Source: a phage
Sequence record: EF517033.1
Reading direction: 5' to 3' (one strand)
DNA length: 564 nt
Of the stretch, positions 1 through 564 are shown piece by piece. A program made the translations under genes and the position numbers. Numbering within the stretch: position 1 is the stretch's first letter; each line of letters opens with the position of its first letter. A model generated the notes under the pieces. That model was not told the origin of the DNA. It saw only the letters and a list, made by a program, of their open reading frames with translations, and did no database searches.

Positions 1-564
1 CTGGGAAAAAGAAAACCCGCCAATACAAGCAACTGGGTGTATAACTTGCTTAGAGAAAGATGATCGTTATCCACACACCTGTAACAAAGGAGCTAACGAT
101 ATGACCGAACGTGAACAAGAGATGATCATTAAGTTGATAGACAATAATGAAGGTCGCCCAGATGATTTGAATGGCTGCGGTATTCTCTGCTCCAATGTCC
201 CTTGCCACCTCTGCCCCGCAAATAACGATCAAAAGATAACCTTAGGTGAAATCCGAGCGATGGACCCACGTAAACCACATCTGAATAAACCTGAGGTAAC
301 TCCTACAGATGATCAACCTTCCGCTGAGACAATCGAAGGTGTCACTAAGCCTTCCCACTACATGCTGTTTGACGACATTGAGGCTATCGAAGTGATTGCT
401 CGTTCAATGACCGTTGAGCAGTTCAAGGGATACTGCTTCGGTAACATCTTAAAGTACAGACTACGTGCTGGTAAGAAGTCAGAGTTAGCGTACTTAGAGA
501 AAGACCTAGCGAAAGCAGATTTCTATAAAGAACTCTTTGAGAAACATAAGGATAAATGTTATGC
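1..564 (+). CDS. 1.7: Partial CDS, truncated at both ends, reading frame 2 (first complete codon 2-4, last complete codon 560-562). Likely product: phage T7-type gene 1.7 nucleotide kinase (dGMP/dTMP kinase) with a DUF3310/SaV-like C-terminal domain.
   Basis: Seen in sequence: 187 consecutive sense codons with no stop in + frame 2, while every other frame has stops. Codon usage and amino-acid composition look like a real protein, with a Cys-rich N-terminal part, a Pro/Thr/acidic linker and a C-terminal KPSHY...GNILKYRLRAGKK...DLAKADFY block. Recollection, unverified: the translation matches residues about 9-195 of the 196-aa T7 gp1.7, and the C-terminal block matches the DUF3310 family. The ORF track omitted it because neither a start nor a stop of this frame is inside the window. 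Confidence 0.85.
86..103 (+). promoter_or_regulatory. Internal ribosome-binding site (AAAGGAG, 86-92) plus in-frame ATG (101-103): a likely internal translation start giving a shorter N-terminally truncated isoform of the same protein.
   Basis: Seen in sequence: a near-perfect Shine-Dalgarno AAAGGAG lies 8 nt upstream of an ATG that is in the same frame as the long ORF. Recollection: T7 gp1.7 has been reported to be made in two sizes because of an internal ribosome-binding site. Confidence 0.6.
548..563 (+). promoter_or_regulatory. Putative ribosome-binding site (AAGGA, 548-552) plus ATG (561-563) in + frame 3: probable start of the next gene, overlapping the last codons of the gene 1.7-like CDS. 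Only ATG plus one nucleotide is inside the window.
   Basis: Seen in sequence: AAGGA lies 8 nt upstream of an ATG in a different frame from the main ORF, at the very 3' edge. Recollection: in T7 the gene 1.8 start overlaps the gene 1.7 end by about 8 nt, which is the geometry this ATG would give if gene 1.7 ends two codons past the window. Confidence 0.4.

Follow-up and report, generated by a model that had tools for sequence, protein, structure and literature searches.

Gene 1.7 and its DUF3310 core

The window, by which we mean the whole stretch of 564 nucleotides analyzed here, represents gene 1.7 of a T7-like phage and matches positions 8190-8753 of the T7 genome (AY264774) at 98.9% DNA identity. 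Its second reading frame is free of stop codons over the full length and codes for residues 9-195 of the 196-residue gp1.7 of T7, as judged from the translated T7 gene; the first 8 codons of gene 1.7, its last codon and the stop are missing from the window. The numbering of T7 gp1.7 is obtained from that of the window protein as n + 8. Mapping of the T7 annotation shows that the end of the window reaches the first bases of gene 1.8 and that the remainder lies within gene 1.7 (Table 1). The window thus maps between genes 1.6 and 1.8 in T7, as expected for the gp1.7 family, whose genes are located between gene 1.6 and gene 1.8/2 in Studiervirinae genomes, and the same slot is likewise occupied in phages T3, HZ2R8, RCIP0028, S523, PP47, and Q19. 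Two substitutions distinguish the encoded protein from the reference gp1.7 of T7, namely V16I and A23T. The latter is located inside the first CxxC motif, which is changed from CIAC to CITC, and this position is occupied by Ala in 24 of the 25 distinct motif versions. The gene as such, the kinase activity of its product and the occurrence of two forms of gp1.7 are already known. We take gp1.7 to be the sole nucleotide kinase of T7, a model phage, and to our knowledge it carries no recognizable nucleotide-binding motif.

Table 1. Features of the window (positions in nucleotides of the window; residues in window numbering unless T7 is indicated).
Feature	Position	Strand	Basis
Gene 1.7 coding frame	2..562	+	open frame; T7 identity 98.9%; phrog_2585 "nucleotide kinase", E 6e-86
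V16I (T7 numbering)	23..25		comparison with T7 gp1.7
Cluster 1, C2HC motif CITCLEKDDRYPHTC	38..82	+	codons read; homologue, IMG/VR and tblastn comparison
Cluster 1 residues C13, C16, H25, C27 (C13-x2-C16-x8-H25-x-C27)	38-40, 47-49, 74-76, 80-82		codons read
A23T (T7 numbering)	44..46		comparison with T7 gp1.7
Shine-Dalgarno sequence AAGGAG of the internal start	87..92	+	8-nt spacer to ATG; sequence
Internal ATG (Met42 of T7 gp1.7), start of the short isoform	101..103	+	Met in 117/119 homologues
Cluster 2 domain, ~58 residues: N-terminal helix (MTEREQEMIIKLIDNN), Cys4 loop, TLGEIRAM	101..277	+	AF2, tblastn, stand-alone ORF of Q19
Cluster 2 ligand set C-x3-C-x4-C-x2-C-P (CGILCSNVPCHLCP)	176..217	+	codons read; 158 distinct versions compared
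Cluster 2 residues C59, C63, C68, C71 (C59-x3-C63-x4-C68-x2-C71)	176-178, 188-190, 203-205, 212-214		codons read
His77 (T7 numbering; window H69)	206..208	+	column variable, no ligand candidate
DUF3310 (PF11753), residues 114-176	341..529	+	Pfam E 4e-23
His119	356-358		invariant in DUF3310 half
Cys145	434-436		invariant in DUF3310 half
His182	545-547		invariant in DUF3310 half
Cys186	557-559		invariant in DUF3310 half
Gene 1.8 ATG, overlapping the last codons of gene 1.7	561..563	+	T7 annotation mapped onto the window

The only Pfam domain of the window protein is DUF3310, whose score of 81.6 bits lies above the gathering cut-off of 24 and places the protein within this family. It is also the only part conserved at the DNA level with phage T3 and with Klebsiella and Pectobacterium phages, occurs in every gp1.7 homologue, and presumably represents the kinase core. 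The DUF3310 half contains invariant Cys and His residues of its own (Table 1), with the motif G[YF]CxGN present in 238 of 238 homologues and a C-terminal H[KR]xxC[YH] in 228 of 238. As far as can be read from the alignments, these residues may form a further metal site or participate in catalysis.

Two cysteine-rich modules in the N-terminal region

Two clusters of Cys and His residues precede the DUF3310 core. They had originally been predicted as C-x2-C-x8-H-x-C (cluster 1) and C-x3-C-x4-C-x2-C (cluster 2), and both patterns, with all their coordinates, proved to be correct when the codons were checked. Their conservation was assessed with one set of 120 homologues of T7 gp1.7 and another of 120 homologues of gp1.7 from a Klebsiella phage, i.e., with ~240 homologues overall, and 50 phage loci were compared as well. 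This comparison, proposed together with the original prediction as a check, indicated that both clusters are conserved. The four Cys residues of cluster 2 (C67, C71, C76, and C79 in T7 numbering) occur in 118-119 of the 118-120 aligned homologues (99-100%), versus only 30-70% conservation in the adjoining columns, and the fourth Cys is followed by Pro80 in 116 of 119 homologues. Among the 158 distinct versions of cluster 2 from both sets, C-x4-C-x2-C is found in all and the following Pro in 155. The last three Cys residues and the Pro are therefore fixed in their spacing, and the first gap varies from 3 to 12 residues. All four ligands are present in 229 of the 232 proteins bearing the module; the first Cys is absent from P0060, P0213, and P0219, and the last one from P0105. 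The additional His noted within cluster 2 in the original prediction is indeed encoded, but cannot be retained as a ligand candidate, because its column is not conserved: it contains S36, G31, H19, N9, E6 and further residues including K, D, and R in the 120 homologues, and S42, G29, H23 and others in the distinct motifs, with His being the commonest residue in no set.

Cluster 1 follows the general form C-x2-C-x3-[DN]-D-R-[YF]-x-H-T-C over 15 residues and is present in 65-69 of the 120 homologues of T7 gp1.7, with the four ligands retained in 60-66 of those in a pattern-independent alignment. In the set of close relatives, the whole segment is ~90% conserved and the ligands are no more conserved than the rest; they stand out in distant phages, which contain versions such as CIACLEKDDRYPHTC, CEACAFDDDRYPHTC, CQACLEKDDRFGHTC, CTACIENDDRYPHTC and similar ones. 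The residues C, C, D, R, Y/F, H, T, and C are kept across phages of Escherichia, Yersinia, Salmonella, and Klebsiella. The C, C, H, and C ligands occur in 25 of 25 distinct DNA versions, a count obtained with a search pattern which itself demanded these residues. Their codons (TGT/TGC and CAC/CAT) are each used at close to 50:50 with the amino acids unchanged, which shows that selection acts at the level of the protein and not of the DNA. In IMG/VR, a degenerate DNA pattern of this cluster identified 33 loci, every one within gp1.7-type genes and distributed over at least six architectures, and no genuine gene in 185,579 prokaryotic species (one genome each), which yielded two chance matches outside of genes.

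In several long forms of the T7-like type, a single ligand of cluster 1 has been lost (H to Y in P0009, C to Y in P0024, C to F in P0039 and P0061 and likewise in P0047), and deletions have removed its CxxC motif in P0033, P0044, P0062, P0063, and P0070, which suggests that the cluster is expendable in these forms. Among further variants (L025, which is IMG/VR 3300045988_000100, L038, P0116, and P0068), one carries an additional Cys/His insert (VCNCERDYDTSDGHALDC) that separates the linker from DUF3310, and others contain the motif of cluster 1 in tandem, with one copy degenerate. Judged by its sequence, cluster 1 is a mini-module of portable character that may represent a short zinc knuckle.

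Both modules have a restricted distribution. Among 50,697 phage records, a tblastn search found 218 with cluster 1 and 346 with the cluster 2 domain, the latter including 189 Klebsiella and 125 Escherichia phages. When only the N-terminal 72 residues were used as the query, the search for homologues recovered one protein, the search for related loci with a single module returned close relatives only, and an exhaustive HMMER search with residues 1-90 gave 3 matches among 1.84 billion representatives, indicating that the Cys modules are confined to the group of T7-like phages.

Structure prediction of the N-terminal region, which had also been suggested as a check, gave a clear picture for one of the two modules. 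The AF2 model of the full-length protein (alignment of 53 sequences) has a mean pLDDT of 59 and is confident only for residues 34-90 (72-90), with values below 50 for cluster 1. The cluster 2 domain modeled alone (64 diverse sequences) reaches a mean pLDDT of 88.6 and a pTM of 0.75 and is predicted as helical, with helices at residues 3-15 and 48-52, short helical turns around the first and the third Cys and no beta-strands. In these models, the domain behaves as an autonomous fold. A Foldseek search of the PDB with the full-length model, to be read in view of its low confidence, gave no match, and the search of viral models with the cluster 2 domain returned only members of the family and the Q19 ORF described below. 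The closest structural neighbors of the domain model are the N-terminal helix-turn-helix domains of the TetR/Rex type, which superimpose over 45-55 residues at 2.5-3.2 A. Residues 1-93 matched no Pfam family at E<=10, including those of zinc ribbons and treble clefs, and no NCBIfam entry at permissive thresholds, and a sequence search of the PDB gave no match. Both modules are without a match to zinc ribbons, treble clefs, Pfam families or solved folds; they have no Pfam entry and no solved structure.

Internal start and module shuffling

The internal start codon had been placed between the two clusters in the original prediction, and it is found there together with a Shine-Dalgarno sequence (Table 1), so that the short product contains cluster 2 but not cluster 1. 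The sequence AAAGGAG upstream of the internal ATG is kept in five of six distinct upstream sequences of long forms. Calculated masses are 22,184 Da for full-length gp1.7 and 17,711 Da for the product from Met42 to the end. Two forms of different molecular weight with nearly identical kinase activity were reportedly described by Tran in 2012, and this would fit with a non-catalytic role of cluster 1. Phages of the K1F-like and KP32-like types have no other start codon than the equivalent of the internal ATG, and the frame of a K1F-like phage opens just 21 nt before it. Since MTER... is the true N-terminus of the proteins of Klebsiella phages and of the K1F type, the short isoform of T7 corresponds to their complete protein, to which the long isoform adds cluster 1. 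The claim that cluster 1 is present only in the long isoform thus applies to the T7 lineage; it does not extend to other phages, because these reorder, isolate or drop the modules, with cluster 1 following cluster 2, standing alone or being absent. The annotated coding sequences of S523 (L003, ~1043-1414) and ZH4 (L049, 877-1440) are shorter than the respective in-frame ORFs, and cluster 1 is located upstream of the annotated start in both, so that the short forms in the databases are partly artifacts of gene calling.

A view on the related phages shows that the N-terminal accessory region of gp1.7 in the Studiervirinae is highly modular. The order cluster 1, cluster 2, DUF3310 is that of T7 and its relatives. 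Cluster 2 and DUF3310 without cluster 1 are found in the K1F and KP32 types, e.g., in the K1F-like phage Kaz2018 (L048), where the start is preceded by a strong Shine-Dalgarno sequence, and in the Klebsiella phage RCIP0028 (L004). Cluster 1 is directly combined with DUF3310 in proteins of ~100 residues (L009, L019, L028, L030, L034, L035, P0122), is followed by other small Cys/His clusters in the Berlinvirus S523 (L003) and in Klebsiella phages, and stands downstream of cluster 2 in a reversed arrangement preceding DUF3310 (L013, L017, L036, L037, P0123, P0124, P0175, P0223). Both clusters are absent from T3 (L002) and PP47 (L051), which have SH3-like domains in their place, and an SH3-like domain follows cluster 2 in EcpYZU01 (L050). 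One or two of these N-terminal SH3-like domains are present in the respective regions (L002, 929-1420; L051, 1058-1717; L050, 874-1539). Such module shuffling among the Studiervirinae appears not to have been described in the searchable literature.

In the Pectobacterium phage Q19 (L052, MK290739), two ORFs that overlap each other (2433-2651 and 2635-2994) share the slot of gene 1.7. The first one codes for 72 amino acids and represents a stand-alone cluster 2 module with the pattern C-x5-C-x4-C-x2-C-P, and the second one, of 119 amino acids, carries an alternative C-terminal domain. The nucleotide kinase gene is regarded as missing in the published description of this phage (PMC7693777). The split is a gene fission, which suggests that cluster 2 is functionally tied to the C-terminal domain and folds on its own. 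The alternative C-terminal domain (PEYTGGS..YY...AECNDIIEALGMNFAEGNAxKAxWRR...) also replaces DUF3310 after cluster 1 in the IMG/VR loci L007, L008, L010, L015, and L029. It gave no match in a Pfam search, and it looks DUF3310-like by eye, but a comparison of shallow alignments by hhalign (Q19 orf14 type) yielded a non-significant probability of 0.8%. One PHROG related to it is annotated as 3'-phosphatase/5'-polynucleotide kinase.

Probable metal binding and comparison with known systems

The reading that we favor, and regard as reasonably probable, is that two accessory mini-modules, independent of each other, make up the N-terminal third of gp1.7 and precede the DUF3310 kinase core. Cluster 1 would be a C2HC knuckle of 15 residues, and cluster 2 would be a Cys4 site of the type C-x(3-12)-C-x4-C-x2-C-P that pins the loops within a small domain of helical structure, with one structural Zn2+ most likely held by each. 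The internal start would be the ancestral-type start of a protein composed of cluster 2 and DUF3310, which would be the sole product in phages of the K1F-like and KP32-like types; in the long isoform of T7, the cluster 1 knuckle would be added in frame upstream. Structural zinc sites appear as the simplest explanation because of the conserved sets of four ligands in a cytoplasmic protein, the loops with little hydrophobic core and the small, portable nature of the modules; four Cys or His ligands conserved across homologues, as generally expected of a structural zinc site, are present in both clusters. Metal binding by either cluster and the identity of the metal are inferred from these features. 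Full-text literature searches for gp1.7 in combination with metal or zinc returned nothing relevant. The dTMP/dGMP kinase activity of gp1.7 does not depend on an added divalent cation, as stated in PMC7693777 and in PMC11897194 with reference to Tran 2012, which agrees with the corresponding statement in the original prediction and implies that any bound metal would be structural. This reported independence, the exchange of the modules for SH3-like domains in T3 and the Pectobacterium phage PP47, the occurrence of cluster 2 as a separate ORF and the absence of the modules from many homologues argue for accessory rather than catalytic functions. The Cys modules may thus serve as structural or partner-binding adaptors, involved either in assembly of the oligomeric kinase or in docking to another factor.

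Alternatively, the cluster 2 domain might bind a [2Fe-2S] cluster or a [4Fe-4S] cluster ligated by three Cys residues instead of zinc, which we consider rather unlikely. It is kept as a rival because the invariant C-x4-C-x2-C core exhibits the spacing of plant-type [2Fe-2S] ferredoxins. The only PDB entry found with the profile of the domain is 8uem_C, a [2Fe-2S] domain aligned through this motif (E 0.88), Pfam Fer2 gave an E value of 0.028 on homologue P0124, and the N-terminal fourth Cys varies in position and is sometimes lost, as in 3-Cys clusters. However, both matches are far below significance and driven by the Cys spacing alone; the plant-type ferredoxin family PF00111 had no match in the window protein and scored 14.8 bits on P0124, below its cut-off of 21. 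Moreover, the domain is predicted to be helical, gp1.7 is made within a lytic cycle of 15-20 minutes, and we know of no report of color or oxygen sensitivity for the purified protein, which has been studied in detail. If an Fe-S cluster were nevertheless present, gp1.7 would be a redox- or iron-responsive kinase.

The Cys residues may also be conserved for reasons other than metal binding, such as a thiol redox switch, disulfide or inter-subunit links, or partner contacts. The tolerance of natural variants for the loss of single ligands and the invariant Cys residues of the DUF3310 half, which need no metal role, are consistent with this reading. It still seems unlikely, since four Cys residues of fixed spacing within 13 residues in the reducing cytoplasm of E. 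coli are a classical signature of a metal site, and since the loop of cluster 2 is rich in Gly, Pro, and Ser and offers little hydrophobic core to hold it together metal-free.

The zinc-ribbon or treble-clef-like module envisaged in the original prediction has to be regarded as very unlikely, even though cluster 1 opens with a CxxC knuckle and the C-x2-C of cluster 2 is modeled in a short helical turn reminiscent of the second half of a treble clef. No such family was matched in the searches of Pfam and NCBIfam with residues 1-93 or in those of the PDB, the confident model is devoid of beta-hairpins, and spacers of only 4 and 8 residues leave no room for the defining hairpins. The two knuckles on beta-hairpins ~10 or more residues apart and the three-stranded sheet of a zinc ribbon are not found in gp1.7, nor is the treble-clef arrangement of an N-terminal knuckle, a loop or hairpin and a C-terminal helix carrying the last two ligands.

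With respect to composition, 7 Cys in 59 residues correspond to a binomial P of 2e-6 at a background of 1% Cys and of 5e-4 at 2.4%, the level of the neighboring T7 genes, so the original statement of an enrichment far above background holds for the number of Cys residues. Their clustering is only marginal if the 9 Cys of gp1.7 are taken as given (shuffle p ~0.06). The strong evidence beyond chance is conservation and not composition. A DNA-level element was rejected, as neither an Rfam family nor a T7 promoter or terminator was found in the window and the ligand codons vary synonymously. That the Cys/His richness reflects compositional chance or a DNA-level element has a practically negligible probability despite the marginal clustering, given that the residues are conserved in hundreds of diverged sequences and their codons turn over synonymously.

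The proposed modular layout with two structural zinc sites shows where to cut gp1.7 for structural work and which residues to mutate, and natural deletion controls already exist in the K1F-type, Berlinvirus-type, and T3-type proteins and the split genes of Q19. T7 gp1.7 was reported in 2025 to be an activator of the defense protein Avs5 (SIR2-STAND; PMC11897194), and the N-terminal modules are candidates for the part sensed by it. As a whole, these results refine the picture of a known protein modestly, at the domain level; they leave the view of the kinase mechanism unchanged and should not surprise specialists.

Compared to T7 gp1.7 (DUF3310/PF11753, phrog_2585), the window contains the same gene, shares its two-start layout and its C-terminal DUF3310 and is no different in kind, apart from the fact that the N-terminal Cys modules are outside of the Pfam family definition. 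Plant-type ferredoxins (PF00111) share the identical C-x4-C-x2-C with the core of cluster 2, but carry the fourth Cys ~29 residues downstream in a beta-grasp fold, whereas that of cluster 2 is located upstream in a domain predicted to be helical. Four Cys ligands and a presumed structural Zn are likewise found in another protein of T7, the primase gp4, and its zinc-binding domain (C-x2-C-x15-C-x2-C) is a zinc ribbon. Judged from the ligand patterns, the nearest described category for both clusters is that of the short zinc knuckles or zinc-binding loops, two groups reportedly included in the classification of Krishna, Majumdar and Grishin from 2003. These knuckles resemble the gp1.7 clusters in having four ligands within 13-15 residues, little regular secondary structure and the character of small add-ons, and they share the CCHC ligand set with cluster 1, the retroviral knuckle being C-x2-C-x4-H-x4-C. 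The gp1.7 clusters differ from them by their spacings of 2/8/1 and 3-12/4/2, by matching no family and by the inferred nature of their metal, and cluster 2 additionally by being embedded in a helical domain of ~58 residues, whereas a short zinc knuckle is free.
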